Below are positions 1-38,773 of a DNA stretch of 64,000 nt, one piece after another (the stretch's first letter is position 1; every line of letters starts with the position of its first letter). The notes beneath the pieces were generated by a model. That model saw nothing but the letters and a program-made list of their open reading frames with translations, made no database searches and was not told where the DNA came from. The DNA comes from an uncultured Gammaproteobacteria bacterium. GTDB lineage: Bacteria > Patescibacteriota > Microgenomatia > CAZETR01 > Amesbacteraceae. The stretch covers positions 93,352 through 157,351 of the forward strand of contig CAZCXU010000001.1 in the NCBI GenBank assembly GCA_964502885.1, read 5' to 3'. Both the position numbers and the translations under genes were made by a program.

Positions 1-636
1 GCTGATGCTATCAACGGGACATTAGTTGCCCCTGGAGAAATTTTTTCGTTTAACAAAACGGTTGGGGAAATTTCAGGTGATACCGGGTATAAACAGGCAT
101 ACATAATTAAGGAGGGAAAAACAATTTTAGGAGACGGAGGTGGAGTATGCCAGGTATCGAGCACTTTATTTCGAGCCGCCTTGAATACCGGACTTCCAAT
201 TGAAGAGCGCACCGCACACGCCTACAGGGTTCACTATTATGAGGAGAAATACCAGCCTGGATTTGATGCAACGGTATTTCAGCCTGCTCCGGATTTCAAA
301 TTTAGAAACGATACGTCGAGACACATTCTTATCCAGACAGTGTTTGATGAAAAAGCAAAATATCTGGCTATTGAAATTTATGGGACAAGCGACGGAAGAA
401 AAGCTGAGGTGTCAAAATCGCGAATTTGGGAAGTTACCCCTCCGCCACCTGACCTATACCAGGACGACCCCACCCTGCCACTAGGAAAGATTGTACAAGT
501 CGAGCATTCGGCATGGGGAGCAAAAGTAGCCTTTGATTGGAAAGTGACCCGCGGAGATGAAGTACTACAACAACGTACGTTTTACTCAAATTACAAAAAT
601 TGGCAGGCTGTGTATCTTCGGGGAACAAAAATATAA
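1..636 (+). CDS. VanW-like domain protein (5'-truncated by window edge)
   Basis: Frame 1 is open from nt 1. Motif GDGGGVCQVSSTLFRAAL is typical of the VanW family. Confidence 0.6.
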   Translation, partial: ADAINGTLVAPGEIFSFNKTVGEISGDTGYKQAYIIKEGKTILGDGGGVCQVSSTLFRAALNTGLPIEERTAHAYRVHYYEEKYQPGFDATVFQPAPDFKFRNDTSRHILIQTVFDEKAKYLAIEIYGTSDGRKAEVSKSRIWEVTPPPPDLYQDDPTLPLGKIVQVEHSAWGAKVAFDWKVTRGDEVLQQRTFYSNYKNWQAVYLRGTKI

Positions 637-24020: not shown

Positions 24021-25751
24021 TTAGGATGTACCACCTGCGGGAGGGACAGGTCTTCGAATGTTGGCTTCTTTGGCTTTGGAGACTTGCTGACCAGCCGAAG
24101 TCAATTGTCCCATGGTGTCTTTGGCCATCTTTTCAACAAAGTCAGAAGGATCTACAGACTTACAGAACATGTTCTTAACCATGGTTGCTATGTTGGGGGC
24201 GAATGACATGGCCCCTACGAAAACTGCATATTGGACGAAAATATTACTGGGCATGTCAAATAAGGGAAAGTTGGCTTGGTTGTTAAAAAAGAAGCCTATG
24301 TCTCCGGCGAATCCTGGGACGGGAGTGCGAGTGTCAAACCCTGCATTAATTAGAATTGCTAAGAGAGCATATGTCACAAAAATTGAGGCATTGCCGATGA
24401 GACAAAGAAGCCATTTTTTAAATCCACCAAAATCAGATTTCTTCGATGGGATAATATCGAAAATAATTATTAGCGGGCCGGCGACAACCAGAAGATTAAA
24501 AGTAATAAAGGCGACCACAAATTGACCAATAATTCTGGCCCAGACGTAAATTGACCAAAGGAAGAAACCAAGAATGAAACCAGCTATGAGAACAACCACT
24601 CCTCCAGAAGCAAGATTAAGCAGTGCAGCTAGAACTATAGTGAGAATTATCAGTACTATGGAAACAACTATCCAAAAGGCAAGGAAATGCCAGACAAAAT
24701 CAAAACCGCCTCCAGCTAAGGTGGACATAGCAAGCGGCAAGTCAGTTATAATTGTCATGCCGATAGCTGTTTGGGCAAAATAAAGCATGCCAATAATTGC
24801 GGAAATGGCTAAGTACATCAGGTCAATTACGAAGCCGGCAATGGCGTATGAAAAGAGAACCAACACAATAGATATGGCAATGCGGGGAATAACCATTTGA
24901 ATTGTTACCGAGACTTGCGGAGATATTTTTGAACGGAACATAACCATAAAACCAGCAATGATGATAATCAGGGTGGTAATTAATAGTGCGATGTTTCGAG
25001 TGGCGATCCAAAATGCTCGGGTAGGAGAGTCTGTCGTTCCGGTACCACCCAAGCCAAGTCTTTCGTAACCACTTCCTTGCGCAAACGTGTCCGAGACAAT
25101 GTTGAGTTTTGAAGCAAGTTGTTTAGTTTCAGACCAGGCTGAGGGGAGGGTGTCAATTTGTGATGAGATATAGTAGGTAAGCTTGAGTACTCCAATATAA
25201 CTTTGACCTATGAATCCATATTTATTAACAAATGCCAGATCAGAAGAAGAAAAATTTTGAGTGACGAGCATGCTGCGGGCAAGATCTATCGCTGTGAGTA
25301 AATCAGTGATGTTTTGCAAAAGGGCTGCTGGATCAGGAGAAGATATAACTGAGGGAAATAACATCGAAGAGAGAGAGTTGAGGATCCAGTTTACTTGAGC
25401 GTAGGTGTAGCGCTCACCAAAAATTTCGTCGGGATTTGTATTGTCGAAAACTTTTTGCTGGAACTCCTGAATTGAAGGATTGTACCAAGGGTGTGGTGTT
25501 ACTTCGGCGAAGAACAAACGGGAGATTTCGTAGATGAGATAGGAGCAACGTGCTGCATCACCGAAAGGGTTGGGGGAAATGGCTTGACAGGCAGCATCTG
25601 CCTGAGCGCACAGCGGCTCGGCGGGATCACAGGTCGGTTGGGCAAGAACCGGTGATGGTGTGATAAATACTGTTAACCCTATGAATAGAAACGAAAGGGT
25701 AAAAAGGTATTTTTTAATCAGCATTGAAAGATGTTTTGTCATGGAAGACAT
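24021..25751 (-). CDS. VirB6/TrbL-like polytopic membrane protein
   Basis: Signal peptide, a ~240-aa extracytoplasmic domain, then at least 6 TM helices. Context with VirB4 and pilins. Confidence 0.5.
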   Translation of the reverse strand: MSSMTKHLSMLIKKYLFTLSFLFIGLTVFITPSPVLAQPTCDPAEPLCAQADAACQAISPNPFGDAARCSYLIYEISRLFFAEVTPHPWYNPSIQEFQQKVFDNTNPDEIFGERYTYAQVNWILNSLSSMLFPSVISSPDPAALLQNITDLLTAIDLARSMLVTQNFSSSDLAFVNKYGFIGQSYIGVLKLTYYISSQIDTLPSAWSETKQLASKLNIVSDTFAQGSGYERLGLGGTGTTDSPTRAFWIATRNIALLITTLIIIIAGFMVMFRSKISPQVSVTIQMVIPRIAISIVLVLFSYAIAGFVIDLMYLAISAIIGMLYFAQTAIGMTIITDLPLAMSTLAGGGFDFVWHFLAFWIVVSIVLIILTIVLAALLNLASGGVVVLIAGFILGFFLWSIYVWARIIGQFVVAFITFNLLVVAGPLIIIFDIIPSKKSDFGGFKKWLLCLIGNASIFVTYALLAILINAGFDTRTPVPGFAGDIGFFFNNQANFPLFDMPSNIFVQYAVFVGAMSFAPNIATMVKNMFCKSVDPSDFVEKMAKDTMGQLTSAGQQVSKAKEANIRRPVPPAGGTS

Positions 25752-25797: not shown

Positions 25798-28700
25798 TTA
25801 GGGAAAGGGAAACGGGCAGCTGGGAGCAATCCATTCCCATTTGCCTTGAAGGCCAGGATTTGCGGCGGTACCGTCTCCCAACGCATATAGATCGGATTCG
25901 GCGGTGGGAATGCAGGAGTCACCCACCAGGTATATGGCAGAGAATACCCGTACTCCTCCGTAAGTATTTATTTCAGATGCGCAACGGGATCTGATGGCAT
26001 TTACGGTAAGGAGGTGACCGGTGATTTGCTGATCGAAGTTGTTTGGTGTGTTGTATTGACCGACGTGAACGCCAAAATCTTCTACTGGAGTGTTGGCTTC
26101 GTAATTGCTGGCGTCCGATTCGTTTAACCAAATCAATAGTGAAAGTCCAGGATTTACGCCGGCGGCGTCTGCGCGTGTGACGACGTCGTTGTAGCAAAGT
26201 TCTGCGAAAGTGCCATCCGGAAAATTGGTCCAGCGCCTGGCGATGTCTATGTAGTTAGTGCGATCTACACAGGGTGTGTTGGTTTCGGGAAGATTGGTGT
26301 TGCAGTTTATGCCGCCCGGTGAGTCTATAGGGCTGACTGATCCTACAAAGCCTTTTGGTCGGAGGGCGCGTTGGAGATTGAGGTTTTCACGGGTGGGGAC
26401 ACCAAGAATGTGATCGGCAAGGCTGCCGACCTTGGGAAAATAAAAAGCTCCCCCAGAAGTGCGCAAACCTCCTCCGATACCACCAGAGGCTACATTACGT
26501 CCTGCCGTGACACGGGGATTGATCAAATTTTGCACCTGGCCGTTGTAGGCTGCACTAGTTCCTGCCGGTATGGATACGTCTCTGTTGTTGGTGATGTCGT
26601 AATCGGTTTGTGTGATCTGCCAAATGCAGGAGTAGCCCTGGGATGCCATTGCCTGACAGGCTGTTTCGGTTAATTGGTTAGAACAAATTCCAAGATCTCG
26701 GGGTGAGGTGGTGGTGCAAGCTTCATATGTGCCAGTCAGGGGGAGTTTGGGCATCCAGCGACGAAGGACTGAGTTTGGGCCTGCCACAAGGATGTCATAG
26801 AGCTTTTCGATGTATGGTGTTTTTACAAAAGGATTAACCCGTGCAGCTGATCTCAGGTTGCGGGTTGGCCAGACAGGGCAGTGAGGAGGACGAGGGGCCA
26901 GTGCGGGAGCGGCACGAACAACACGCCACTCACAGTATGGTGACATTCCGGCGGCAGTACACCCAGTTTGGTCCAGGGCCGAACAAACAGAAGCATAACT
27001 ATCGTATCCAGATCTGCTGCGGCAGGCATATTCATCAGTGGGGGCACAACATATTTCGCCAGCATTACCACAATCCAGATCAATTATTTCCCGATTTTCG
27101 CCACATCCGTTTGGACCGGGCGCGCGGCAGTCGTATGTGGAGCTGGCATGGTAGCACTCGCTAATCCAAGGACAGCGTTGTCCGATTTGAATCGTGCAGC
27201 ATTCGCCCCCAGGAAGCTGGTCATTGCATTCATCTCCCTCCAGGGAACAGGGTCTATTGATGCAGTTGCCGGCACCGGCGGGACACGGGTTTGCGTCACA
27301 GCCAATTACGAGTCGGGGTGTGTAGCGGAAGAGCTGACGATATGTAAGATTTCCGTTTAGGACGTTTCCCAGCAGGCGATCTCCGGATGAAGTACGAGTT
27401 TCGGCTTCGTCGCAAGTAAAGTCTGATGGAACATATAACGCAGCGGGCGCAGGTCCGTCAATAATTTCCGTGTTGCGAATGACAGTTCCGCCACCAGAGC
27501 AGCCCCTGAGAATGGAGCCTGCAAAATATCTTTGGCAGAGAACAACTGTTTCGTCGGAGTGTCCTTCGGATGCTCCAAAACCCTGATGGCGGGCAACTCT
27601 TTGGGAAAACATATTGCTATTTTCAGAACTGAACAAGGGAGCGTGTGTGGCGGCAGGGGGTGTTGGCGTTGGAGTAGGTGTGGCCAGAACAACAGTTTGA
27701 CTTGAATAACTGGATCCGGCGAGACGAATACGAATGCTGCCGGGGAGACCGCGACTGACAAACCACTGGCTACTTCCGCCGTAGCGATAATATGAATGAG
27801 GCCATGTAGGTATGATGCCTTCGTAATAGCGTTGCACACTGACACTGGGGTCAACATAGTTACTGAGTGGACCGTAGTCTTGGTTTGTTGTCGGATCAAA
27901 AACATGGAATTGGTTCCAAAGCGCTTCACCCATACCTGGCAAACCGTAATAAACATCTATCAGGTTGTAAGCTGGCAAGTAAAAAGCCCGGAGATAGTCT
28001 GCCGGATTTGTTGATAAAACAGGAGTGGGGATTGGGGGCGGGGGGGGAGGGGCGGTGGGAGGAACAATTACCGGATATGGCTGATGCAAAGCTTGGACGA
28101 GACTTGATAAAGGAACAGCTGATTTCATGTGCGGGAAATAAAGCCGTGAATCAAAGCGGCCTGAAATAAGGGTGGGAAAACTGAGGCCAATAGTGAGAAT
28201 TCGGCCATCGATGTCTACGGGTTGAGCTTCCGGAATAACACTTGCTGTAAACTCACTCACAGTGTCCTCAAGAGTTGAGTAATTGATGTATTTATGTGTC
28301 CAGGTTTCGGTATCGAAATTGCTGGCCACCCAACTAAGGCGGCGACGCAGGGTGCTGCTGACGCAGGGTTCTGCGAGGTCGAGACGTAAAGCTGCAGTGA
28401 TGTTTCCGATGCGACTCAGCAGGTTTCTGCCTAGGGAAAAAAGCATGTTTACATCATCAAGGTTGTTGGCTATCACAGTAAAACCGTAATTTAAAAGTAC
28501 ATTTCTAATTCCGATTGGGTTGAATTGATCGCCCGGAAGTAAGGCAATGTTGACAAGTGCGCCACCAAAATCCTGCATATTATTCATGCCAACTCGACGG
28601 ATGATATCGATCATTCTGACAACATCAAGGAAACTGCCAAATGAGTTTGTAAATATTGCTTCCAGAGCGTCTAAAACATAATCAAAGTCGATGTTCCGCT

Positions 28701-29460
28701 GACAGGAAACCAGATAGTTGTGGTACTGTGACCCTACGTTGTTGCTGGCAACGGTTTCCTTTATGTCATCACGGAAGTCTTTTGGATATAATTTGTTTAT
28801 TGGCCCTGAATAAGAGGTGATGCGTTTAGTGTCGGCCGGATCGAAACCGTTTAAGGGAAGTTTTTCTGACTGGAATACCGTACCATTCAGATACCAATTA
28901 AGATATTGGTTAACTTTGTAATCGTCGGGAATTGCAACTTCGGTCTGGCCGAAAATGGGGAGTTGGGAGTTGGTCGCATTGATAGCGACTGTCCAGCGAA
29001 CTCGTTTGACGTAGCAAATGTCTGTGGATCCTGACTCACAGAGATAGTCGTCAGAACGATCGCCGCCCTCCTGGGTTAGGGGGACACTGATGGGGTTGGC
29101 CGGGAGGACTGAAAGACCACACATGTCAATAACGTCTGAGACCTCATCGTAACCTGAGACATTTAGGGATTTGGCACAATGAAATGAGAGATAGACTTTA
29201 TTGGGATCGTCCGGGGCTTCGGGGACTTTTGCGGGAATGAGGACATCGCAAGGGTTTCCAGGATAGGGTCTTAGCGGATGAAATTCCGGATCGTTTCCGG
29301 TATTTGTGTGGCAAGGATAATTAAATGGAGCCGGCCAGGGGTTACGGGTAAAAAATCCGAGAGTGGGGGTCTGGGCGTGAATAAGATTTAGCCATGGAGT
29401 GATGGCAGAAAAGACTGCTACAACAGAGCTTACTACTAACAACTTAACGGTCGGTTTCAT
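25798..29460 (-). CDS. giant secreted Cys-rich surface protein (1220 aa)
   Basis: Signal peptide MKPTVKLLVVSSVVAVFSAITPWLNLIHAQ. Pro-rich linkers PPTAPPPPPPIPTP and ATPTPTPTPP. The central region is densely Cys-rich (CDANPCPAGAGNCINRPCSLEGDECND...). Confidence 0.6.
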   Translation of the reverse strand: MKPTVKLLVVSSVVAVFSAITPWLNLIHAQTPTLGFFTRNPWPAPFNYPCHTNTGNDPEFHPLRPYPGNPCDVLIPAKVPEAPDDPNKVYLSFHCAKSLNVSGYDEVSDVIDMCGLSVLPANPISVPLTQEGGDRSDDYLCESGSTDICYVKRVRWTVAINATNSQLPIFGQTEVAIPDDYKVNQYLNWYLNGTVFQSEKLPLNGFDPADTKRITSYSGPINKLYPKDFRDDIKETVASNNVGSQYHNYLVSCQRNIDFDYVLDALEAIFTNSFGSFLDVVRMIDIIRRVGMNNMQDFGGALVNIALLPGDQFNPIGIRNVLLNYGFTVIANNLDDVNMLFSLGRNLLSRIGNITAALRLDLAEPCVSSTLRRRLSWVASNFDTETWTHKYINYSTLEDTVSEFTASVIPEAQPVDIDGRILTIGLSFPTLISGRFDSRLYFPHMKSAVPLSSLVQALHQPYPVIVPPTAPPPPPPIPTPVLSTNPADYLRAFYLPAYNLIDVYYGLPGMGEALWNQFHVFDPTTNQDYGPLSNYVDPSVSVQRYYEGIIPTWPHSYYRYGGSSQWFVSRGLPGSIRIRLAGSSYSSQTVVLATPTPTPTPPAATHAPLFSSENSNMFSQRVARHQGFGASEGHSDETVVLCQRYFAGSILRGCSGGGTVIRNTEIIDGPAPAALYVPSDFTCDEAETRTSSGDRLLGNVLNGNLTYRQLFRYTPRLVIGCDANPCPAGAGNCINRPCSLEGDECNDQLPGGECCTIQIGQRCPWISECYHASSTYDCRAPGPNGCGENREIIDLDCGNAGEICCAPTDEYACRSRSGYDSYASVCSALDQTGCTAAGMSPYCEWRVVRAAPALAPRPPHCPVWPTRNLRSAARVNPFVKTPYIEKLYDILVAGPNSVLRRWMPKLPLTGTYEACTTTSPRDLGICSNQLTETACQAMASQGYSCIWQITQTDYDITNNRDVSIPAGTSAAYNGQVQNLINPRVTAGRNVASGGIGGGLRTSGGAFYFPKVGSLADHILGVPTRENLNLQRALRPKGFVGSVSPIDSPGGINCNTNLPETNTPCVDRTNYIDIARRWTNFPDGTFAELCYNDVVTRADAAGVNPGLSLLIWLNESDASNYEANTPVEDFGVHVGQYNTPNNFDQQITGHLLTVNAIRSRCASEINTYGGVRVFSAIYLVGDSCIPTAESDLYALGDGTAANPGLQGKWEWIAPSCPFPFP

Positions 29461-29484: not shown

Positions 29485-29880
29485 TTAGGAGCAGCCGATG
29501 CCTCTGGCTATACAGATATCAAATATTCCCAAATTGATACCGAGGAAAGTGCCAATAAGGTTGACTATTACGAATGCTGACAAGGTGATTATTAATCCTG
29601 CAAGAGAAAAGATAATTGTATTTCTTGCTTGTTCGGTTTGGGCTTTGTCTGCTCCTGCAGCTAGATACTTGTATCCACCAATAACCAGAAATCCTAAAGA
29701 AATGAAAACAAAAAGGCTGATGATTGCGGTAATCGCAGCGGCTATTACTCTATTTAGGTTCTGGAGCATTGCGGGCGGAGTAGGGTTTGCAATTGTTGTT
29801 TGAGCTTGAGCGACAGTAGGCCATGCTAATACGAATACAGATGCGGCCAACGTGATCAGTGAGCGAATTGTTGTGTACAT
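29485..29880 (-). CDS. VirB2/TrbC-like pilin paralog 1 of 11
   Basis: Signal peptide ...VAQA, two hydrophobic helices flanking the AAGADKAQTEQARN loop, and a C-terminal Cys pair. Confidence 0.5.
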   Translation of the reverse strand: MYTTIRSLITLAASVFVLAWPTVAQAQTTIANPTPPAMLQNLNRVIAAAITAIISLFVFISLGFLVIGGYKYLAAGADKAQTEQARNTIIFSLAGLIITLSAFVIVNLIGTFLGINLGIFDICIARGIGCS

Positions 29881-29960
29881 CTGTTTTTAATATAGGGCAA
29901 AAAAACAACCCCGGCAAGGGCCCGGGGTTGTTTTGGCCATTTCTGGCCGGTTCCAAAAAC

Positions 29961-30326
29961 TTATGAACCAATCGTTGCGAGATTGAATTCGATAAGGTTG
30001 ACGTTGAAGAGAACACGCAGAATGTACAGTAAGGCGTAAGCAGAGAAGACGATTGCCAAACCGATTAAGGCGGCAGTGATCTTCTTGCGAGCTTTTTCGG
30101 TACCTTCTTTGTCTCCACCAGCGAGAATCCATTGTAAACCACCCCAAAGTAGGATGATAAAGGAAGCTACGCCAGCGATACCCAACATAAGATTCAAGAT
30201 GGTTCTCAAGAAATCTGATGGGGTATAGTTCTTCAAAGTGTCGAAACGTGTATCGACGTTAGCCACGCTACCGACATCCGAGTCTGGAATAGGAAGAGCA
30301 AGTTGTGCAAGTAGTCTCATCATCAA
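29961..30326 (-). CDS. VirB2/TrbC-like pilin paralog 2 of 11
   Basis: Core LLWGGLQWILAGGDKEGTEKARKKITAALIGLAIVFSAYALLYIL. Confidence 0.5.
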   Translation of the reverse strand: MMMRLLAQLALPIPDSDVGSVANVDTRFDTLKNYTPSDFLRTILNLMLGIAGVASFIILLWGGLQWILAGGDKEGTEKARKKITAALIGLAIVFSAYALLYILRVLFNVNLIEFNLATIGS

Positions 30327-30379
30327 ATCTCACCGCCTTTCAGTGGAAAGTATAACATAAAATCAGTGCCGGAGGCTAA

Positions 30380-30754
30380 TTAGAGGGGTGTGATAGTGTA
30401 CTCAATGAGATTGACGTTGAAGAGGGTACGGATGATATACAGAATCGCATAGGATGAAAATACGATAGCCAATCCTATGAGAGCATAGCTGATTTTGCGG
30501 CGAGCTTTCTCGACTGCGTCTTTGTCGGATCCAGCGGTAATCCATTGAAACCCACCTATTAGGAGGAATAAGAATGCGGCAACACCTGACAGGCCCAGGA
30601 GGGCAAGAATCGACGTGCGGATATAGCTGGCGGGCTGAATATTGTAGGTGTTAGCAAAAGGAGAGTTGGGGTCGCGTAGATCTATTAATTGCTGGGCATC
30701 AATAGAAGGAGGAAAGAGAAGCAAGCTTGCCAGGAGAGCGAGAATCAGTTTCAT
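30380..30754 (-). CDS. VirB2/TrbC-like pilin paralog 3 of 11
   Basis: Signal peptide plus core LLIGGFQWITAGSDKDAVEKARRKISYALIGLAIVFSSYAILYII. Confidence 0.5.
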   Translation of the reverse strand: MKLILALLASLLLFPPSIDAQQLIDLRDPNSPFANTYNIQPASYIRTSILALLGLSGVAAFLFLLIGGFQWITAGSDKDAVEKARRKISYALIGLAIVFSSYAILYIIRTLFNVNLIEYTITPL

Positions 30755-30782
30755 GTGAGTTCGAGTTTATAAGAAAGGGTTG

Positions 30783-31454
30783 TCAGTTACAAGGGATGCA
30801 GGTAATCAGGCCACATCCAGTCGTGCCGAGCGGAGTCCAAGAGCCGTTTGATTCGCATCGGAAACATGGACCATTTATGACAGATGTTGATCCTAACGTG
30901 CCTGCCGGAATGCATCTTCCAGTTGCAGATCCGCCACAGGCACACATGCCGGATGGTGGGGTGATGTCGCAGCCGGGATCTGTGGGGTTAGTACAAGGAA
31001 TCCCTGAATCCCAGGGATCACTACCAGGAGCAGGTGGGTTGGGGTCGTTGATCTGAGAGGAAATTTCCCCGATATGTCCGAGGTTGAATTGAATTAAATT
31101 GATGTTAAAGAGGGTGCGGAGAGCAAAAAGGAAACTGTAGGCTGAAAAAACAATTACCAGTCCAATTAAAGCCTGAACAACCTTTCTGCGGGCTTTTTCA
31201 ATTGCGTCTTTATCACCACCAGCCAGTATCCACTGAATACCGCCGATAAGCAGGAATATAAAAGAAAAAACTCCTGCCAGTTGGAGGAGAAGGTTTAGAA
31301 GTGTGGTCAATATCATTGATGGGGTGAGGCTGCGAATTGTCGTAAAATCCGGATCGACGTTTTGTTCTATGCCAATGTAGTCTTGTGCTTTTGCGGTTGC
31401 AGGCATTAAGAACATAGAAATAACTGTGGAGATGTGAACCAGGTGGTTTCGCAT
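30783..31454 (-). CDS. VirB2/TrbC-like pilin paralog 4 of 11 with C-terminal Cys-rich extension
   Basis: Pilin core IQWILAGGDKDAIEKARRKVVQALIGLVIVFSAY, plus a ~100-aa C-terminal tail with 12 Cys. Confidence 0.5.
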   Translation of the reverse strand: MRNHLVHISTVISMFLMPATAKAQDYIGIEQNVDPDFTTIRSLTPSMILTTLLNLLLQLAGVFSFIFLLIGGIQWILAGGDKDAIEKARRKVVQALIGLVIVFSAYSFLFALRTLFNINLIQFNLGHIGEISSQINDPNPPAPGSDPWDSGIPCTNPTDPGCDITPPSGMCACGGSATGRCIPAGTLGSTSVINGPCFRCESNGSWTPLGTTGCGLITCIPCN

Positions 31455-31460
31455 GGGTAA

Positions 31461-31802
31461 TTAGAGGTTTCTTAAGGTGAATCCAATCGGATTTACATTA
31501 AATAGGACACGCAATATATAAAGAATGGCGTAGGAAGAAAAGACGATAACTAAACCTATCAGCGCGTTGATGATTTTACGGCGGGCTTTGTCGATACCAT
31601 CTTTGTCGCCACCGGCAGTAATCCACTGAACTCCACCCCAGAGCAGATAAATAAAGAAGCCAACACCAGCAAGACCCAAGAGAAGACTGATGGCTGTAGC
31701 GACATAAGCGGAGGGTTTGAGGTTTGTAATGTAGTCGTAGTTGCTGTCACCAGAATTGACAGTGATGGGAACAAATTGAGCCAATAGGTGTTGGTTGATC
31801 AT
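31461..31802 (-). CDS. VirB2/TrbC-like pilin paralog 5 of 11
   Basis: Core LLWGGVQWITAGGDKDGIDKARRKIINALIGLVIVFSSYAILYIL. Confidence 0.5.
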   Translation of the reverse strand: MINQHLLAQFVPITVNSGDSNYDYITNLKPSAYVATAISLLLGLAGVGFFIYLLWGGVQWITAGGDKDGIDKARRKIINALIGLVIVFSSYAILYILRVLFNVNPIGFTLRNL

Positions 31803-32131
31803 AGTTCAGGAACGTTGAGGGAGAGAATCGAGACGCCAAATAACACTTCGATTATCCAAATGATTACGAATGAAGAAAGAAGTATGGCAATTCCAATAAG
31901 GGCATTACGAATACGGTGTGTGGCTTTCTGGACGCCTTCCTTATCTCCGCCGGCGGTGATATAGGCAAAACCACCCATTAACAAGTTGACGAAAAAATAA
32001 ATTCCACTTAATCCCATGACGGCATTTAAGACGTTTCTTAGTAGCAACTGGACCATGCTGTCAGCCTCGTTGACGTTGATATTTCCGATTTGACTGTTGA
32101 CCGCAGGGTTGACGATGGTAAACAGATACAT
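31799..32131 (-). CDS. VirB2/TrbC-like pilin paralog 6 of 11
   Basis: Core LLMGGFAYITAGGDKEGVQKATHRIRNALIGIAILLSSFVII. ATGA overlap with paralog 5. Confidence 0.5.
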   Translation of the reverse strand: MYLFTIVNPAVNSQIGNINVNEADSMVQLLLRNVLNAVMGLSGIYFFVNLLMGGFAYITAGGDKEGVQKATHRIRNALIGIAILLSSFVIIWIIEVLFGVSILSLNVPEL

Positions 32132-32134
32132 ATT

Positions 32135-32518
32135 TTAAGGTGAAGCAACAATTAACTGCAATCCGAGACGAAAGATGTCCAATCCCAGGAATCGGCCAAT
32201 GATTCCAATTAGTCCGTATGATCCAACAACTATGAACATACCCAATATGGAAGTGGAAAGACGTTTTTTGCTTACCTCCACGGTATTTTTATCGCCACCG
32301 GCACCAATCCACTGCATTCCGGAAAGGACTATTTGATAGATGAACCAAAGTGACGCGACTATAGTGAGTAAACCGAGGATAGAAGAAACAAATTTTTCCA
32401 ACATATCTCCGGGCCCTCCACCTGTGCCAGTCATAAAAAGTCCTGAATGTCCAAATGTACCCAGAGGTCCGACACCGTCAATGTTTCCCAAGTTGACTTG
32501 AGCTAAAAGGTTTCTCAT
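32135..32518 (-). CDS. VirB2/TrbC-like pilin paralog 7 of 11
   Basis: Core MQWIGAGGDKNTVEVSKKRLSTSILGMFIVVGSYGLIGII. Start set at the internal Met (ATGA overlap with paralog 8); the ORF track extends to 32554. Confidence 0.45.
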   Translation of the reverse strand: MRNLLAQVNLGNIDGVGPLGTFGHSGLFMTGTGGGPGDMLEKFVSSILGLLTIVASLWFIYQIVLSGMQWIGAGGDKNTVEVSKKRLSTSILGMFIVVGSYGLIGIIGRFLGLDIFRLGLQLIVASP

Positions 32519-32874
32519 GGGGTGAATATCCGTGGTGAAATAAGCGTGTTCCATCCATTAATACCATACAGGAAGAGGCCGATGACGCTGGCGATGACTA
32601 ATGATCCGGTGACTATGGCTAGTCCCAGAAAGGATTGCCAAATGCGCTCGTGGGCTTTTTGGACCATTTTGGGGTCGCCATTTGCGCTTAAGTATCCATA
32701 CCCTGCCAAAATTAGATTGATCAATGTGTATATACCAGCCAGGATTATGGAGAGTCGGATGAGGCTGCTAAGAATTAAGATAAGACCTTCGCCCTGAGTG
32801 CCAGCTGCGAGTCTGGGATTGTTGTATCCGGATGTCCCAAATGGATTGTCGATAGTGCCGAATGCTCCTAACAT
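32515..32874 (-). CDS. VirB2/TrbC-like pilin paralog 8 of 11
   Basis: Core LILAGYGYLSANGDPKMVQKAHERIWQSFLGLAIVTGSLVIASVIG. Confidence 0.45.
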   Translation of the reverse strand: MLGAFGTIDNPFGTSGYNNPRLAAGTQGEGLILILSSLIRLSIILAGIYTLINLILAGYGYLSANGDPKMVQKAHERIWQSFLGLAIVTGSLVIASVIGLFLYGINGWNTLISPRIFTP

Positions 32875-32880
32875 AGTTTT

Positions 32881-33231
32881 TTAGACGAATGGCGGGTCAA
32901 TTAAGTTTACACCTGTAATGGTAGATATAATCTGAAGTATAAAATAAGCACTAATGACTAGCAATAAGCCCAGAACTCCATAAGTGACGGAATTTTTTCC
33001 TTGCTGAACACGTTGTGGAGGGTTGATTTGTCCGCCAAAGATAATTAGTAAGTAACCTCCGTGGATGATGAGATAAATGAAATAAAGACTGGCGATTGCC
33101 ATGGCATTGAGGAGTAAGAGAGAGACAATATCGCCCAATTGACCACGGAAAGGGGAGGTGGCCCCAACGTTGGGATGGTTGACGAAAAACTTGTCTTGCA
33201 AGTTTACTGGCGGGTTAAGAAGCTGAAACAT
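32881..33231 (-). CDS. VirB2/TrbC-like pilin paralog 9 of 11 (most divergent)
   Basis: Two hydrophobic helices flank the GGQINPPQRVQQGKNSVTYGVLGLLLVISAYFILQII loop. The C-terminus ILQIISTITGVNLI is shared with paralog 10. Confidence 0.4.
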   Translation of the reverse strand: MFQLLNPPVNLQDKFFVNHPNVGATSPFRGQLGDIVSLLLLNAMAIASLYFIYLIIHGGYLLIIFGGQINPPQRVQQGKNSVTYGVLGLLLVISAYFILQIISTITGVNLIDPPFV

Positions 33232-33234
33232 TTT

Positions 33235-33540
33235 TTAGATTAAGTTGGTGCGGGTAATAGTTTGAATTATTTGCAAAATAAAGAAGGCACTAACTACAGT
33301 AAGGAGGCCAAGAAGCGCGTTGGTGATCTGTCTTTTTATCTGCATGAGTTTGGCTTCGTCGCCCAGGCTTCCCATATATGCGAATCCCGCTGTAATCAGA
33401 TGGTAAAGAAAATAGAGTCCGGCTCCGGCCATGGCAAAGAGAATAGTGCGAGAGGCGATTGTTGAGGGTAGTGTGGCACTGGTCGAGAATCGGCCGGAGG
33501 TGTGGATGAAATCGGGAATCTGAGCTAAATGTGAGTTCAT
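33235..33540 (-). CDS. VirB2/TrbC-like pilin paralog 10 of 11
   Basis: Core FAYMGSLGDEAKLMQIKRQITNALLGLLTVVSAFFILQIIQTITRTNLI. Confidence 0.45.
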   Translation of the reverse strand: MNSHLAQIPDFIHTSGRFSTSATLPSTIASRTILFAMAGAGLYFLYHLITAGFAYMGSLGDEAKLMQIKRQITNALLGLLTVVSAFFILQIIQTITRTNLI

Positions 33541-34055
33541 TAGAGTCGGAAACCAAATAAGGAGAGACCTAAGACGTTAAATCCTAAGAAGTTGAGAACG
33601 ACGATGGCGGAAGTGATAAGAATTAAACCTAGTACTGCCGAGGTGAGTGTGTCTTTGGCGGAATTAATTTTTTTAGGGTCGCCTTCAGCGGTGGCAATAG
33701 TGAAACCCGCATATACGATCAGAAGAAGAGTAGCCAGGCCGGCCAAACCAACTGCCCAAGTAGCAATAATCCAGACTGTATTTTGAGTATCGGAGGTGGG
33801 TATACAACCTAAGGCTGTCCTAATAGCACCAGTGCCTGCACAAAAAGGATTTTGAGCATTACATTCTGCTACAGTGTCGCAACAAAGATGTTCCATAGGG
33901 TTTGCACATTGAGGGCGGGCGACACAGGGACTGTAAGTACCCCATATTGTTCGAGAACGGATTTCACACCAGCTGTAAGTTGGATCTGGGAGGGATAATA
34001 CTGACGTGACAAATAAAAGTGTTGTGATAAGTATTCTAAGTGGTGCAGATTTCAC
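33540..34055 (-). CDS. VirB2/TrbC-like pilin paralog 11 of 11 with N-terminal Cys-rich module
   Basis: Signal peptide, an 8-Cys N-terminal module, then the pilin hairpin GFTIATAEGDPKKINSAKDTLTSAVLGLILITSAIVVLNFLGF. Confidence 0.45.
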   Translation of the reverse strand: MKSAPLRILITTLLFVTSVLSLPDPTYSWCEIRSRTIWGTYSPCVARPQCANPMEHLCCDTVAECNAQNPFCAGTGAIRTALGCIPTSDTQNTVWIIATWAVGLAGLATLLLIVYAGFTIATAEGDPKKINSAKDTLTSAVLGLILITSAIVVLNFLGFNVLGLSLFGFRL

Positions 34056-34080: not shown

Positions 34081-35868
34081 ATGATAATTGGTATGACGAA
34101 AGTGAGACTTACAATAATATGTTTAATAACGTTTTTATGGATAACCATGACATCTTCGGTGCGGGCAGAGGAGTGTGATAATCCAGGAAGTTTGTCTGAT
34201 CCAGTAACAATAACCAGATGCATAGGCAAATTTAATGGAATATTGGAAGCGATTTCGAAAGCAAATTCTAACAACAAGCAGCAGCTGCAGGGGATGCAGC
34301 AACAGATTGCCAAACTACAAGCGCAAATAAAAGCTTTGGAGATGCAAATCGGGGTGCTACAAAAAGGAATATTTGAAAGAGAAGTACGGGTGGGGGTGAA
34401 ACAGGAACTGTTGTCTGCGAAAGTGAGACGTGACTATGTAGTGAAACGAGATCAGCCAATATTGCAGGTGTTGTTTGCTGCTGATGGGGCAGCGGATTTT
34501 TTTCAAGATATGTTTTTGCGGGAGAAGTTGGCGCGGCTGGACCATGCATTGATTGTGTCTGTGGGGGGGGAGATTAAAAATTTGAATGATCAGGCGCAAA
34601 CTTTATCGTCCCAAAAACAAAAACTGGCGAGTCTTCAGGCGCAAGTAGATAAGCAGGCGGATTTTCTACAGGCGGAAGTCGAAAAAGCCAGTAAATATGA
34701 GTCTGATTTGGGAGGGAAGATCTCAGCATTGACCGCTAGGCAACAGGAATTGCTGGCGGAAAAGACTGGGACTATCGCCACTTCGGTCGGAGATGTACCA
34801 CTAGCTGACGATCCGGCCGCGAGACCGGATTACAATCCAGGTTTTTCACCGGCGTTTGCCATGTTTTCGTTCGGGGCGCCACACTTTAAAGGGATGAGCC
34901 AATATGGGGCTTTGGGTAGGGCCAAGGCAGGCCAGAGTTATGAGACCATTCTTAAGGCTTACTATGGTGATGTGAGGATTGTGGATGTGGGAACGGGTTT
35001 TTCGATAAGGACAAGTGCAGGAACAATGCCAATGGAGGATAGATATATGAAGGGGATAGCGGAGATGCCGACGTCGTGGGCAAATGACGGGGGAATGGAG
35101 GCGTTGAAGGCGCAAGCGATAGCGGCCAGAAGCTATGCGTTGAGTTATGTGGGGTGGCGAATGGGTAAACAATCAGCCGGAGGTTCGATTTGTGTGACGG
35201 AAGCGTGTCAGGTATGGAGATCGTCGAAAGCAAACAGTCCCGGAGCGTGGGGAAGTGCTGTTGATCAGACTAAGGGAAAGATTTTGGTGAGTAACAAAAC
35301 GGGAGAAATTATTAGCGCCTGGTATGCGAGTACGTCGGGAGGTTATCAGGAAAGTTATACCACCTTGGGCCATACTACTCCTGGATTTTGGGACACGACA
35401 TCAAATTGGACGAGGTGGGCAGATGGAGCGTATGAGGTAAAAGCAGGAAGTCCGTGGTTTTATAAAGGCTGGTACAAGACCAGGACAGGAAAAACCTGTG
35501 GCAGGGCACATCCGTGGCTTAACCAGGAGGAGTTCTCAGATATGGTGAATGCTGCCATTGTGGTGGAAAGAGGTGGAGATGTGTCGGGAATTTTTCCTGA
35601 AGATGTGAGGAGTTGTTGGGGTGGAAGTGACAATCCATGGTCAAAAGACCGGTTGGCACAGGAAGCGGACAAGCATGGTGGCCGGGTGACGAGTGTCGGT
35701 AGTGTGAGAGTGGAGCATGGAAACAATGGTATTACAAACAAGGTAATACTTTCGACAAATAGAGGAGAAGTTACGATTACCGGAAGTAATTTCAAACGAG
35801 CATTTAATTTGCGCGCCCCAGGAGCTCTAGCTTTGAAGAGTGGACTTTTTAATATCGAAAAGAAGTGA
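34081..35868 (+). CDS. SpoIID/LytB-domain peptidoglycan hydrolase with N-terminal coiled coil
   Basis: Signal peptide, then a heptad-rich region (QQQIAKLQAQIKALEMQIGVLQ). SpoIID signature EALKAQAIAARSYAL. Confidence 0.6.
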   Translation: MIIGMTKVRLTIICLITFLWITMTSSVRAEECDNPGSLSDPVTITRCIGKFNGILEAISKANSNNKQQLQGMQQQIAKLQAQIKALEMQIGVLQKGIFEREVRVGVKQELLSAKVRRDYVVKRDQPILQVLFAADGAADFFQDMFLREKLARLDHALIVSVGGEIKNLNDQAQTLSSQKQKLASLQAQVDKQADFLQAEVEKASKYESDLGGKISALTARQQELLAEKTGTIATSVGDVPLADDPAARPDYNPGFSPAFAMFSFGAPHFKGMSQYGALGRAKAGQSYETILKAYYGDVRIVDVGTGFSIRTSAGTMPMEDRYMKGIAEMPTSWANDGGMEALKAQAIAARSYALSYVGWRMGKQSAGGSICVTEACQVWRSSKANSPGAWGSAVDQTKGKILVSNKTGEIISAWYASTSGGYQESYTTLGHTTPGFWDTTSNWTRWADGAYEVKAGSPWFYKGWYKTRTGKTCGRAHPWLNQEEFSDMVNAAIVVERGGDVSGIFPEDVRSCWGGSDNPWSKDRLAQEADKHGGRVTSVGSVRVEHGNNGITNKVILSTNRGEVTITGSNFKRAFNLRAPGALALKSGLFNIEKK

Positions 35869-35902
35869 AGAGGTTAGAAGATGTTTGGTGTAAAATCAGG
35901 TT

Positions 35903-36628
35903 GTGACTGATCTATACGTTTCTCAGGATAAACATAAGCAAGCGCATGCACATCCTGCGTCTTCTGCTCATGGGCCGCAAGAGAAGAGCGTGACTGAGGG
36001 TGTGACAGCAGGTCAACATGATCAAGTGAGAACACATATCAATGATGTCTTGAAGCGGGTGGGGGAAAAACCCCGCAAAGAACTAGGAGGAGCCTATACT
36101 GTGTTTCCCGGGGTGAAATTTATCCAAAAACAGCAAGATGAGGAAGTGGTATTGATGTTGCGGGCGCACCCGATCACGAATTTTAAGTGGATTGTTACCG
36201 TGATTTTGGCGTTATTGCTTCCAGAGATTCTCATTGCTTTTGGGGCTTTGGCAGAGATTCCCTTCAGGGTTGTATTTGTAGGGAGACTGGTGTGGTATTT
36301 AATGATGTTGGGCTTTTCATTTGAGAAATTTCTGTCGTGGTATTACTCGGTGTTCATTGTGACAAATGAAAGAGTTATTGATATCGATTTTGTCAATTTG
36401 CTATATAGGGTGGTTTCTTATGCCAATCTGGATCACATTGAAGAGCCGGCGATGGTGGCGGGCGGTTTTATCAGGTCAATTTTTAAATATGGGGACGTGT
36501 CTGTGGCTACGGCTGCTGAAAAGTCGACAATCGAGGCTATGGGAGTGCCGCATCCAGATAAGGTGATACGAATCGTTTCTGAGCTGGCGGAGGATTACGA
36601 AAGAGCTCACGGGAGGAGAGACAAATGA
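35903..36628 (+). CDS. membrane protein with bacterial PH (YdbS/YdbT-like) domain
   Basis: EEVVLMLRAHPITNFKWIVTVILALLL plus two TM helices, the typical bPH_2 architecture. Confidence 0.45.
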   Translation: MTDLYVSQDKHKQAHAHPASSAHGPQEKSVTEGVTAGQHDQVRTHINDVLKRVGEKPRKELGGAYTVFPGVKFIQKQQDEEVVLMLRAHPITNFKWIVTVILALLLPEILIAFGALAEIPFRVVFVGRLVWYLMMLGFSFEKFLSWYYSVFIVTNERVIDIDFVNLLYRVVSYANLDHIEEPAMVAGGFIRSIFKYGDVSVATAAEKSTIEAMGVPHPDKVIRIVSELAEDYERAHGRRDK

Positions 36629-36870
36629 ACGAAACAGCAGGTGTGGCGTGGCTACAGAATTTTTTGGTGAGTGGGCCAGAATTAATTCTTAAGGGGTTTT
36701 TGGTAGTGGGGATGCTAATGTATCTATTTTTTGCGCTGGTGGTAATGAAACAGGTGGCAATTATGACGGAAACCTTTGAATCTGAAGTTAACTCAACAGT
36801 GAAATTGTTTGCATGGGGACATTTTCTGTTGACGGTCGTGATTTTGGCTGTGGTGATAGTGGTACTTTAG
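36625..36870 (+). CDS. small two-TM membrane protein
   Basis: 81 aa, translationally coupled (ATGA) to the upstream gene. Confidence 0.35.
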   Translation: MNETAGVAWLQNFLVSGPELILKGFLVVGMLMYLFFALVVMKQVAIMTETFESEVNSTVKLFAWGHFLLTVVILAVVIVVL

Positions 36871-36913
36871 GAGAGGGCAGAGACTTTTGTTTCTGTGATA
36901 TCCTTTTATTGAT

Positions 36914-38773
36914 ATGGAATTAGCCGTGGGAAAAATTTCCGGTAATATGGGTGACAATTTTTGGGGGCAGGTACTGACTTATGCTCCCAATGAAGAAGAC
37001 TTGAAAAATGTCCGTGGAGAGTTGGTTGTGGTATTGGGTATAGATGGGGAGGGTGGGCAAATAGAAACAATGAAAAAAGGGAGGGAGGTATTGAGTGAGA
37101 TTCAAAATGGGTATTTCTCAGGCAAGAAAGAGTCTAATTTTGAATCTCTGAAGGAAGCGGTGGAAACTGGAGTTTCAGGAGATGCGAGGGTGCAGGTCGG
37201 GTGTGTGGCTTTAGCCAGAGATTGCTGGCAAGTTGTGGTTTGGGGCGGAATGGGTGTATGGGTGCAGAACGGAACTAAAAGTGGGTATGTGGTAAGGCCG
37301 GGGAGGGCTTCGGGAGATTTGATTGCTGTGAGCGGAAAGTTGAGTGTGGGAGGTGTGGTGGTTTTGGGCAATCAAGTTTTTTTTGCGGGAATTTCTGAAA
37401 GCGAACTTCCGAAATTTGTTATCCGTGGGGATGTGGACTTTGCCGCTGAGGCAATGAGGGGGGTTTTACAGAAAGCGAGTGGGGTTGGAGGTGGGTGGGT
37501 GGGGGTTGTTTTGAAACAAAATGCTCATAGGGAGACAAAGAAATTTGAGGTAGTAGATAAACAAAAAGAACTTGTTTCTGAAGGGGCTTTTCGGCCAAGC
37601 TATCCAAGCTATGGACAACGACTGCTTAACAAATTCTTGATGGCGGCATCGAGGATTTATGTCAAAAGGGGAGACAGAGAAGATCAGCGGCGAAAAGTGC
37701 GTTATCTGGGGCTAGGGCTAGTGGCTACACTTTTGATAATGGTGGGGGTGGGACATTTTACCGCGAAGAAAAATGATAATTCAAAAAGCGAATCAGTTTT
37801 TTCGTTTGTCTCGGTTGAAGAAAAAATAAATGAAGCCGCTGAGTTGGCCGATCTGAATCCAGCCAGAACTAAGGAGTTACTGATTGATGTGAAGAGTGCG
37901 ATGAGCAATTTGAAAGGAAATAAGAATGATGTTCAAAAAATAGGGGTATTGGAGACCCGATGGAATGAAATCTGGCAAAGAGCTTCCGGGATAGTAAAGT
38001 TGGAAGTGAAAGAAGTTGTGGATCTGACCTTGGTAAGAGAGGGGATGCAGGGGCGGCGGATGGTGAAAGTAAAAGATAAGTTGTTTGTGTTGGATGGGGA
38101 TTTGGGCAGAGTAGTGGAAGTTACATATGCTAACGGATCGGCTAAGGTGGTCGGTGGAGGAAATCCAATCGCACAGGCGACGTTGATTGCCAATTATCTG
38201 GAACGTGTTTTTGTGATGACCCCCAACGGAATGGTTGAGATCGGAGAATCGGTGGTGAAACTGAAGCCTGGTGAAAGTTGGGGAGCTATTGCTGATATGA
38301 AGTTGTTTGGAGGAAATGTGTATTTGCTGGATAGCGAAAAAGGGGAGGTGTGGAGACATCAGGTAAAAGGAGCTGAGTGGGGAAGCGCTCAAAAGTGGCT
38401 GGCGGATGGGAACGGGGGTGCGGCAATTGTGGGCGCAAAATCTATGTTGATAGACGGCAGTATTTATGTAATAGGAAGAAATGGAATGAGTAAGTTTACT
38501 CGGGGAATAGAAGACAGAGTTGCGGTGGAGGGTTTGGATGAAATGTGGGGCGATGGGGTGGTGGCTTGGACAGGAGAAGATGACGAGAATATATATGTGC
38601 TGGATGGTGACAAAAAGCGGATTGTGGTGATTAGTAAACAGGGGGCGTATAAAAAACAATTTGTAGCAGATGTGTTCGCGGGAGCCAGCGATTTAGCTGT
38701 TGATGAGGATCGAGGCGAGATTTTTGTACTTTCCGGTGGTAAAGTCTGGGCTGCAAAGTATGAAAGTAACTAG
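36914..38773 (+). CDS. hypothetical single-pass membrane protein with C-terminal beta-propeller-like repeats
   Basis: Central TM LGLGLVATLLIMVGVGHF. Repeated motifs IYVLDGDKKRIVV, VYLLDSEKGEVWRH, LFVLDGDLGRVVEV and IFVLSGGKVWAAKY. Confidence 0.45.
   Translation: MELAVGKISGNMGDNFWGQVLTYAPNEEDLKNVRGELVVVLGIDGEGGQIETMKKGREVLSEIQNGYFSGKKESNFESLKEAVETGVSGDARVQVGCVALARDCWQVVVWGGMGVWVQNGTKSGYVVRPGRASGDLIAVSGKLSVGGVVVLGNQVFFAGISESELPKFVIRGDVDFAAEAMRGVLQKASGVGGGWVGVVLKQNAHRETKKFEVVDKQKELVSEGAFRPSYPSYGQRLLNKFLMAASRIYVKRGDREDQRRKVRYLGLGLVATLLIMVGVGHFTAKKNDNSKSESVFSFVSVEEKINEAAELADLNPARTKELLIDVKSAMSNLKGNKNDVQKIGVLETRWNEIWQRASGIVKLEVKEVVDLTLVREGMQGRRMVKVKDKLFVLDGDLGRVVEVTYANGSAKVVGGGNPIAQATLIANYLERVFVMTPNGMVEIGESVVKLKPGESWGAIADMKLFGGNVYLLDSEKGEVWRHQVKGAEWGSAQKWLADGNGGAAIVGAKSMLIDGSIYVIGRNGMSKFTRGIEDRVAVEGLDEMWGDGVVAWTGEDDENIYVLDGDKKRIVVISKQGAYKKQFVADVFAGASDLAVDEDRGEIFVLSGGKVWAAKYESN

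Follow-up and report, generated by a model that had tools for sequence, protein, structure and literature searches.

The DNA analyzed here is a stretch of 64,000 nucleotides (nt), termed the window (GenBank assembly GCA_964502885.1, contig CAZCXU010000001.1, positions 93,352 to 157,351 of the forward strand), in which positions 29485–34055 are filled by 11 consecutive minus-strand open reading frames (ORFs) of 101–223 amino acids (aa). These ORFs, which are numbered #1 to #11 from high to low coordinates, that is, in the direction of transcription, are interpreted below as an array of VirB2-like pilin genes of a type IV secretion system (T4SS). A hidden Markov model (HMM) built from the 11 paralogs picked up exactly these 11 ORFs in the window, and the ORF listing and the array HMM thus confirm the tandem, same-strand arrangement described in an earlier note on this DNA. 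The gaps between adjacent genes range from −4 to +80 nt. ATGA overlaps, which had been reported for several pairs, are present at #6/#7 and, if #5 starts at M13, at #4/#5; the overlap of #1 and #2 is instead TAATG. For #5, a start at 32518 (127 aa) is more likely than one at 32554, because it produces the ATGA overlap with the stop codon of #4 and because an independent gene call on strain contigs also yields 127 aa.

Hydropathy analysis identified two long hydrophobic segments in all 11 members, and the paralog alignment gives the consensus LAG...GG...I.AGGDKxxxxKAxxxI..AL.GL.IV.SAY, of which AGGDKxxxxKAxxxI is the loop part. Only two Gly residues are invariant in this alignment, and the mean column identity is 25%. 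An AlphaFold2 (AF2) model of #10, computed from a 60-sequence alignment with a mean predicted local distance difference test score (pLDDT) of 79, places helices at residues 36–68 and 73–107 and joins them at the GGDK loop. The loop carries a net charge of 0 to +2; most N-terminal regions range from neutral to slightly acidic. The earlier note had ascribed to all 11 proteins a leader, two transmembrane helices, a charged loop and an LFNVNLIEF-like C-terminus; of these elements the two-helix hairpin is indeed common to all, but the loop motif is degenerate in #1–#4, the C-terminus is clear only in #7–#10, and a hydrophobic Sec-type signal peptide was detected by hydropathy only in #1, #8, #9 and #11. 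Among the other members, #2, #5, #7 and #10 open with a short M-x(2-4)-(L)LAQ sequence, and #3, #4 and #6 are leaderless. Among proteins P0003–P0085, orthologues of #10 come in a long form of 138–141 aa, with a full signal peptide ending in ...FAQA, and in a short form of 120–122 aa starting with MxxxLLAQ, to which #10 of the window belongs. TGA recoding or a missed upstream start, considered as an explanation for the short MxxxLLAQ N-termini, was rejected: the stretch GGCGGTGA lies ahead of the start of #10, an in-frame TGA stop is located two codons upstream, no signal peptide is encoded before it, and both forms are found among the orthologues.

PF18895 (T4SS_pilin; gathering threshold, 26.6 bits) is the best Pfam match of all 11 proteins, and seven of them (#1, #3, #6, #7, #8, #9 and #10) score at or above the threshold, which bears out the proposed membership in a T4SS pilin family. 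The remaining four, #11 with 26.2 bits and #2, #4 and #5 with 18–20 bits, are orthologous to, and collinear with, array members of other genomes. In NCBIfam, the best match of all 11 is NF045849, a family of Mbov_0395-type pilin-like proteins from Mycoplasma integrative and conjugative elements (ICEs), with 13.5–34.1 bits against a cutoff of 40 bits. A tblastn search of 72,556 plasmids with #10 gave no pilin match. Judged from these profiles, the array genes are members of PF18895 that are VirB2-like in architecture and context, with membership in the canonical TrbC/VirB2 family (PF04956) not demonstrated. Fold searches with the hairpin retrieved neither VirB2 nor TraA, only generic helical hairpins such as ATP synthase subunit c; the modeled fold is compatible with VirB2 and not diagnostic of it. 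Such matches, together with the unrelated automatic names that some sources carry for these proteins, could be taken to mean that the array encodes unrelated two-helix membrane proteins, such as holins, bacteriocin or immunity peptides or c-ring-like subunits, which merely lie near a T4SS. This explanation is scarcely credible, given that PF18895 is the sole consistent family match for all 11 proteins and that the association with T4SS genes recurs in dozens of species, a pilin gene being found near virB4 in 1135 assemblies according to a published survey (PMC12102498). The holin, bacteriocin and immunity readings were rejected, as no such family was among the matches.

The genes downstream of the array are arranged in the order #11, a 1220-aa protein, a VirB6-like protein, a 926-aa protein, a PrgI/VirB3-like protein, a TrsD-like protein and VirB4 (Table 1), so that five coding sequences separate #11 from virB4. 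The VirB4, TrsD-like and PrgI/VirB3-like genes are co-stranded with the array, which lies in a T4SS cluster of VirB4, TrsD-like, PrgI/VirB3-like and VirB6-like genes. The linkage to VirB6-like, PrgI and TrsD genes is found in dozens of species, and that to VirB4 in this window. VirB4 itself is apparently split, the TrsD-like ORF overlapping the start of the ATPase ORF by 23 nt. On the strength of the family matches and this gene neighborhood, it is very probable that the array encodes VirB2-like pilins of a chromosomal, monoderm-type T4SS resembling the FATA class of mating-pair formation (MPF) systems.

Table 1. Positions of the pilin array, its putative regulatory sites and the associated T4SS genes in the window.
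Feature	Position	Strand	Description
Pilin #1	33540-34055	-	171 aa; signal peptide, Cys-rich N-terminal domain (8 Cys), then hairpin; PF18895 37.4 bits; NF045849 34.1 bits
Pilin #2	33235-33540	-	101 aa; short MNSHLAQ N-terminus, no signal peptide; PF18895 18.2 bits, sub-threshold
Pilin #3	32881-33231	-	116 aa; no leader; atypical loop GGQINPPQR; PF18895 27.7 bits
Pilin #4	32515-32874	-	119 aa; no leader; PF18895 20.2 bits
Pilin #5	32135-32518	-	127 aa from M13 (longest ORF 139 aa, start 32554); PF18895 18.7 bits
Pilin #6	31799-32131	-	110 aa; PF18895 33.4 bits; exact protein also on Logan contigs L090 and L091
Pilin #7	31461-31802	-	113 aa; subfamily #7-#10, 57-67% identity to #8-#10; PF18895 33.1 bits
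Pilin #8	30783-31454	-	223 aa; signal peptide, hairpin, 107-aa Cys-rich C-terminal extension (10 Cys); PF18895 34.5 bits
Pilin #9	30380-30754	-	124 aa; signal peptide; PF18895 33.9 bits
Pilin #10	29961-30326	-	121 aa from TTG, or 120 aa from ATG at 30323; PF18895 42.1 bits, TrbC 25.3 bits
Terminator-like stem-loops with U-run, #10-#11 spacer	29898-29948	-	minimum free energy -34.7 kcal/mol (91-nt stretch), z -3.6
Promoter-like TTGCCG-17-TATATT before #11	29917-29889	-	site scan; overlaps 3' side of terminator-like hairpin
Pilin #11	29485-29880	-	131 aa; signal peptide, C-terminal CxxxxxxC; PF18895 26.2 bits; NF045849 30.2 bits
1220-aa Cys- and Pro-rich secreted protein	25798-29460	-	signal peptide; directly downstream of array
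576-aa polytopic membrane protein, candidate divergent VirB6	24021-25751	-	AF2 mean pLDDT 81; Foldseek
926-aa ORF interrupting the T4SS cluster	21182-23962	+	no family match; weak similarity in only two related loci
PrgI/VirB3-like protein with C-terminal CarboxypepD_reg domain	19840-20931	-	PF12666 PrgI 33.6 bits
TrsD-like protein, resembles VirB4 N-terminal domain	19161-19907	-	248 aa; NF041427 TrsD E 9e-6; NF045975 VirB4_plasma positions 83-229, E 3e-9
VirB4-like conjugal-transfer ATPase (CD1110 family, monoderm type)	17318-19183	-	621 aa; NF045971 377.5 bits (cutoff 325); PF19044, PF12846

The 576-aa protein is kept downstream of the arrays in 58 of 79 related loci. It has no match in Pfam (E ≤ 1), and thus none to PF04610, or in NCBIfam (E ≤ 0.1). 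When its AF2 model was compared with 350,542 chains of the PDB using Foldseek, the top five matches, and nine of the 11 best, were TrwI/VirB6 chains from the stalk of the R388 T4SS; the probability for the top five is 0.96–1.0, with template modeling scores of 0.42–0.43 relative to the target and E-values of 0.03–1, which alone are not formally significant. The protein is accordingly modeled here as a putative divergent VirB6, and it may be the VirB6 that appears to be missing from Microgenomatia. The slot between the pilin genes and the VirB6-like gene is occupied by a large, highly variable protein, with matches in 26 loci. The 1220-aa protein that fills this slot in the window has no Pfam, NCBIfam or PDB sequence match; in one related locus (L025), the ORF in the same slot (1248 aa) itself matches the pilin HMM. 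No Pfam or NCBIfam match was obtained for the 926-aa protein or for a 288-aa protein.

The window is chromosomal and contains leuS, tsaD, the gene for ribosomal protein L25, yidC, jag, dnaA (12917–14275), dnaN, smpB, a gene for tmRNA, six tRNA genes, dnaG and rpoD, and the array lies approximately 15 kb from dnaA. No relaxase or coupling protein (T4CP) was found in its 64 kb. Divergently from the array, at 34081–38773 on the plus strand, lie genes for a SpoIID-domain protein, a 241-aa protein with two transmembrane segments and a weak match to a bacterial PH domain, and a 619-aa protein; these three genes are syntenic with the array in 32–38 related loci and are followed by smpB and the tmRNA gene. 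The GC skew is positive in every 2-kb bin of the window and the cumulative skew rises monotonically, with no sign change at dnaA/dnaN (12.9–15.6 kb), so that the skew marks no origin in the window.

Arrays of this kind have been described. Quinonero-Coronel et al. (2025; PMC12102498) used PF04956 and PF18895 to search 3,035 Patescibacteria genomes and identified 441 VirB2 arrays of 2–11 pilin genes in 383 assemblies, with a mean identity within arrays of 25% and a maximum of 54%. These arrays are enriched in Microgenomatia, often located near dnaA and mostly without a relaxase, and the list of genomes includes Amesbacteria. The array of the window resembles them in consisting of tandem PF18895/PF04956-type genes near virB4 and dnaA, in the absence of a detected relaxase or coupling protein and in its mean identity of ~25%; it is therefore an instance of a published kind and normal for its clade. 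It departs from them in that #7–#10 reach 57–68% identity, as compared with the published maximum of 54%, and in that its size stands at the top of the published range. The fixed order of orthogroups, the hairpin after #10, the second allele of #11 and a VirB6 candidate for Microgenomatia, in which VirB6 homologues were found to be scarce, are not described in the passages of that article consulted here.

To identify related loci, one genome per species was scanned with motifs of #7–#10, which yielded 184 relatives, and 79 loci, ranked by similarity to #10, were compared. The best relatives are metagenome-assembled genomes (MAGs) of Candidatus Amesbacteria, with 66–75% identity to #10, followed by Shapirobacteria, Woesebacteria and other Microgenomates, and the organism is by this measure a Microgenomatia bacterium related to Candidatus Amesbacteria, of the ultra-small Patescibacteria. 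Many MAG records with Microgenomatia arrays and conserved synteny (L001, L005, L008, L012 and others) are titled “uncultured Gammaproteobacteria bacterium”, and one array record each is titled “Clostridia” and “Nevskiaceae”; these titles look like placeholders or errors. As counted with the array HMM, 74 of the 79 loci contain at least six pilin ORFs (median 8, maximum 13): the closest Amesbacteria loci (L001–L006 and L009) have 9–13, Shapirobacteria typically six and Woesebacteria eight. The array had been called exceptional for its 11 members, a judgment that these counts and the published range of 2–11 do not sustain; 11 genes is the top of the published range, yet ordinary for the genus-level neighborhood.

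The order of the genes is conserved together with their identity. For #1–#6 and #11, the best blastp match in other Amesbacteria arrays lies at the same relative position, and the identity to these orthologues is roughly 40–64%, versus 30–47% to the best paralog in the same genome. For instance, #4 shows 39–64% identity to its orthologues and 34% to its best paralog, and the collinear orthologues of #2 in L001–L010 show 39–54%. When every pilin ORF in the 79 loci was labeled by its best-matching window paralog, the Amesbacteria arrays read 1-2-3-4-5-6-[7..10]n-11, and the triplet 3-4-5 was present in 65 of the 74 loci having at least six pilin genes. Orthologues of class 1 stand first in the arrays, and their large N-terminal domains vary. 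Genes #7–#10 form a single subfamily with 57–68% mutual identity, whose copy number ranges from 1 to 5 between genomes; it is a tandem expansion, in Amesbacteria, of the penultimate gene. In the core identity matrix, paralogs share 21–47% identity, except for 60–68% within #7–#10.

Comparison at the nucleotide level provided no support for exchange of sequence among the paralogs. Over a 78-codon core, identity is 59–65% within #7–#10 (60–80% in 45-nt windows) and 37–52% in other pairs; the identity of ~70% that had been claimed for the hairpin blocks therefore holds locally in #7–#10 and not elsewhere. The nucleotide motif that the earlier note quoted for its “paralogs 2 to 5”, apparently #10 to #7 if numbered from the low-coordinate side, occurs 2–3 times, versus none expected by chance, and lies in #8, #9 and #10. 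Synonymous differences are saturated, with proportions (pS) of 0.77–0.86 among #7–#10 and 0.64–0.87 in orthologue pairs, and nonsynonymous proportions (pN) are 0.19–0.45, being lowest for the orthologues of #10 (0.19–0.23). This saturation renders dN/dS unusable, and only pN < pS can be reported; because pS is saturated and pN is lower, the duplicates are old, and purifying selection acts on them. The longest exact nucleotide run common to any two paralogs is 14 nt, and in a permutation test none of the 55 pairs yielded a significant conversion tract after correction. The suggestion that the hairpin blocks are a substrate for gene conversion thus fails, and neither gene conversion nor concerted evolution is supported by the comparison. 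The array is an old set of distinct, ordered paralogs rather than of interchangeable variants, with a core common to Microgenomatia.

Variation between strains was examined on short Logan contigs from the runs SRR22184561, SRR22184562 and SRR22184563. Exact-protein look-ups gave strain contigs only for #6 and #10, and nothing for VirB4, #3, #7 (P0111), #9 or both forms of #11. The strain contigs cover #3 and #9 in part and #4–#8 in full, with 98.8–100% identity to the window and no rearrangement; #10 matches at 366 of 366 positions, and the protein P0001 is 100% identical to it. The last gene differs. The allele of #11 in L080 and L081 (SRR22184561 and SRR22184562) has ~50% identity, being effectively unalignable, over codons 1–37 and 73% over the hairpin, and it is flanked by a spacer to the next gene that is identical at 24 of 24 positions and by a 5′-end of the 1220-aa gene that is identical at 378 of 380. 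No donor for the divergent segment was found elsewhere in the window. These observations indicate an apparent allelic replacement between near-identical strains, not a shuffling of paralogs; a chimeric MAG assembly could produce the same pattern, and either way two alleles of #11 exist in closely related populations.

The earlier note had raised the idea of a variable adhesion or antigenic repertoire, in which interchangeable variants would be shuffled by gene conversion or recombination. The outward N-terminal parts are indeed highly diverse, the copy number of #7–#10 changes between genomes, the divergent allele of #11 is sharply bounded in an otherwise near-identical strain, and both the class-1 N-terminal domains and the giant downstream protein differ strongly from species to species. 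For the array as a whole, however, this idea is not supported and is quite improbable: one-to-one collinear orthologues are closer than paralogs of the same genome, the paralogs show neither conversion tracts nor long common runs and are saturated at synonymous sites, #3–#10 are nearly invariant and unrearranged in the strain contigs, and only #11 varies, its divergent allele having no donor in the window. Every copy is full-length and has a start codon, and the copies are tightly spaced or overlap, which suggests co-expression; there are no silent cassettes among them. In this respect, the array differs from the pilE/pilS system of Neisseria, which comprises an expression locus and silent or truncated donors; here, 11 complete ORFs with start codons lie on one strand, and no identity tracts or mosaic alleles are seen between copies. 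The published survey likens such arrays to the virB2 paralogs of Bartonella and Anaplasma (PMC12102498). The virB2 clusters of Anaplasma phagocytophilum and Bartonella likewise consist of tandem divergent copies beside a T4SS and have been proposed to diversify surface interactions, but they are recent, lineage-specific expansions in diderm intracellular pathogens, linked to antigenic variation, whereas most paralogs of the window are ancient, with fixed positions and no sign of recombination between copies. A weak form of recombination-driven variation, affecting #11 and the copy number of #7–#10, is possible.

The spacing of the genes provides a further indication of their organization. Genes #1–#8 follow one another closely, at −4 to +6 nt, and spacers of 28, 53 and 80 nt precede #9, #10 and #11, respectively. 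The spacer between #10 and #11 contains a GC-rich 13-bp stem followed by a U-run. Among the related loci, 36 of 56 have a hairpin with ΔG ≤ −20 in the spacer that separates the last pilin gene from the penultimate one, as compared with eight of 71 other spacers (Mann-Whitney p = 4e-10); the loci with a hairpin in this spacer include L001, L002, L004–L006, L008, L009, L015, L017, L018, L020, L024, L027 and L030. In addition, #10 is the most conserved member, with the 66–75% identity to its orthologues given above, a ranking toward which retrieval with #10-like motifs and ordering by similarity to #10 are biased. The combination of the highest conservation and the conserved downstream hairpin suggests the #10 type as a candidate for the abundant (major) subunit. 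The arrangement also suggests that #11 starts a second transcription unit together with the genes for the 1220-aa protein and the VirB6-like protein.

Taken together, the ancient, ordered and individually conserved paralogs favor a multi-subunit machine over a repertoire of variants, and the best overall explanation is a VirB2-like array of a chromosomal T4SS that encodes a non-redundant multi-subunit set (rough probability, 0.6). The filament idea among the two functions that had been offered for the array thus fits better than the variable repertoire, with the proviso that we infer filament formation, subunit stoichiometry and host contact. In the proposed mechanism, the hairpins would be inserted into the membrane, mostly without a cleavable Sec signal peptide: in the related loci, a crude hydropathy heuristic detects a signal peptide in 74% of class-1 proteins versus 3–10% of those of classes 2–6, which implies that most members must, if this prediction holds, insert without a cleavable leader. 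The N-terminal region and the C-terminal tail would face outward, with the K/R-containing GGDK loop in the cytoplasm. With VirB4 supplying the power, the hairpins would next be extracted and built up, on the VirB6-like platform, into a heteromeric structure, either a pilus or a stalk-like conduit. In this assembly, the #10 type would be the bulk subunit and the other classes would be low-abundance, position-specific subunits, some of which may display Cys-rich domains (N-terminal in #1 and C-terminal in #8). Gene #11 would begin the next transcription unit, co-oriented with the gene for the 1220-aa secreted protein, and these two products may be the host-facing, strain-variable parts. Such a heteromeric mechanism with major and minor subunits is put forward tentatively, at somewhat less than even odds.

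Several results weigh against this interpretation. None of the 11 proteins reaches the threshold of PF04956 (TrbC/VirB2; 27.9 bits), the best being #10 with 25.3 bits (E 1.7e-5) and #8 with 21.5, and the rest scoring 16 or less or not matching; direct membership in the TrbC/VirB2 family, as the earlier note had it, is therefore not borne out by this HMM check. Alignment with hhalign to eight annotated plasmid VirB2/TrbC proteins gave a probability of 7% over 16 columns, although this reference set is small and of the MPF-T type only, which leaves room for a remote relation. The family profile matched no pilin among the PDB sequences, only spurious transmembrane-helix matches, and to these are added the generic results of the hairpin fold searches and the E-values of 0.03–0.1 of the VirB6 fold match, which fall short of formal significance. 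The prominence of #10 is open to the retrieval bias already mentioned, and shuffled sequences contain consensus promoter- and terminator-like sites at least as often as the region does. The essentiality data for such systems come from another class (Saccharimonadia) and concern the pilin series rather than individual genes. We know of no filament of such proteins that has been seen in any Patescibacterium.

An alternative is that the proteins are membrane-resident or short-range parts of the T4SS, forming a heteromeric ring or stalk through the wall, or serving as accessory subunits inserted by Sec/YidC, with no extended pilus. T4SSs of monoderm bacteria normally have neither pili nor a pilin, and the machinery of the window is of the monoderm MPF-FATA type. 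Related pilin-like proteins occur in Mycoplasma ICEs (NF045849), in which no pilus is known; a cleavable signal peptide is missing from most of the paralogs; no homology to the pilus-forming VirB2 can be demonstrated; and the filaments characterized so far in the candidate phyla radiation are composed of unrelated Ig-like Pam pilins (bioRxiv 10.64898/2026.03.03.709456). On the other hand, the hairpin architecture and, in several members, a signal peptide ending in AQ mirror VirB2, the sub-threshold PF04956 matches extend down to the E-value given above for #10, the array adjoins a VirB6-like protein, VirB6 being the platform for pilin recruitment in R388, and the large extracellular domains of #1 and #8 imply surface display. 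A pilus-free ring, stalk or accessory role is therefore considered unlikely, though worth weighing seriously, and the multi-subunit pilin set is retained as the preferred interpretation.

With regard to origin, the pilins, VirB4 and the TrsD-like protein all match families of Mycoplasma ICEs (the Mbov_0395 pilin-like family and the Mbov_0397 VirB4 family, NF045975). From these profile matches, the VirB2-like proteins may be native to monoderm MPF-FATA systems and not co-opted from diderm T4SSs, a choice that the published survey leaves open (PMC12102498). The Mbov_0395 protein resembles the array members in belonging to a monoderm MPF-FATA element and in being named alongside the Mbov_0397 VirB4 family, but it is encoded by a single gene on a mobile element, as opposed to a chromosomal array whose members score below 40 bits. 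The pilins VirB2, TrbC and TraA of the T-pilus and F-pilus are likewise small, with two helices, a short loop and, in some, a leader ending in A-x-A-Q, and are encoded beside homologues of VirB3, VirB4 and VirB6; in contrast, the canonical systems encode one pilin each and belong to diderm hosts, and the proteins of the window have a longer loop with GGDK, lack a signal peptide in seven of 11 cases and fall short in the PF04956 and hhalign comparisons described above.

A parallel is found in Southlakia epibionticum ML1, whose pilin genes have been described, as a series, as essential (Wang et al., 2023; PMC10633639). A 2025 review likewise refers to six divergent VirB2-like pilins and proposes, speculatively, a pilus-like conduit (PMC12857230). 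The array of the window is similar to that of ML1 in comprising a series of divergent, structurally similar VirB2-like proteins within a chromosomal T4SS of Gram-positive type, without a relaxase or coupling protein. It is unlike that series, which belongs to Saccharimonadia, in having 11 genes rather than six, and it is for the ML1 series that essentiality has been shown. By analogy of logic, the array may also be compared with type IV pili and the pseudopili of type II secretion systems, in which non-redundant paralogs share one polymerization module and a conserved gene order, with one abundant subunit and others bearing extra domains. The two kinds of system are unrelated in fold, assembly ATPase and leader, and the array proteins have no prepilin peptidase G|F site, so that this likeness is not one of homology.

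The array is thus not a new kind of element but a clean, large example of known arrays. What it adds are the fixed-order orthogroups, a candidate major subunit with a conserved downstream hairpin, a strain-variable last gene, a structural candidate for VirB6 and the frequent absence of signal peptides; the putative VirB6-like protein, in particular, is present where the sequence profiles of Pfam and NCBIfam gave none. Known T4SS pili are homopolymers of VirB2 with a VirB5 tip, and we know of no characterized T4SS built from heteropolymeric VirB2-like subunits in a fixed order. To our knowledge, the T4SS of Patescibacteria is also the only T4SS shown to be essential for the growth of its owner, and because monoderm T4SSs normally lack a pilin, the pilin array is its oddest feature. 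In its broadest form, which is slightly more doubtful than the heteromeric mechanism itself, the hypothesis is that the T4SS of Microgenomatia, and perhaps of all Patescibacteria, would build a heteropolymeric filament or stalk from at least six to eight non-interchangeable VirB2-like subunits in a fixed order, with #10 as the bulk, minor subunits carrying extra domains and a variable #11 co-expressed with a giant secreted protein. If true, this heteropolymer logic would parallel that of the major and minor pilins of type IV pili. The features added here make the hypothesis of a heteromeric machine concrete, and predictions for cultivated Saccharibacteria follow from it.

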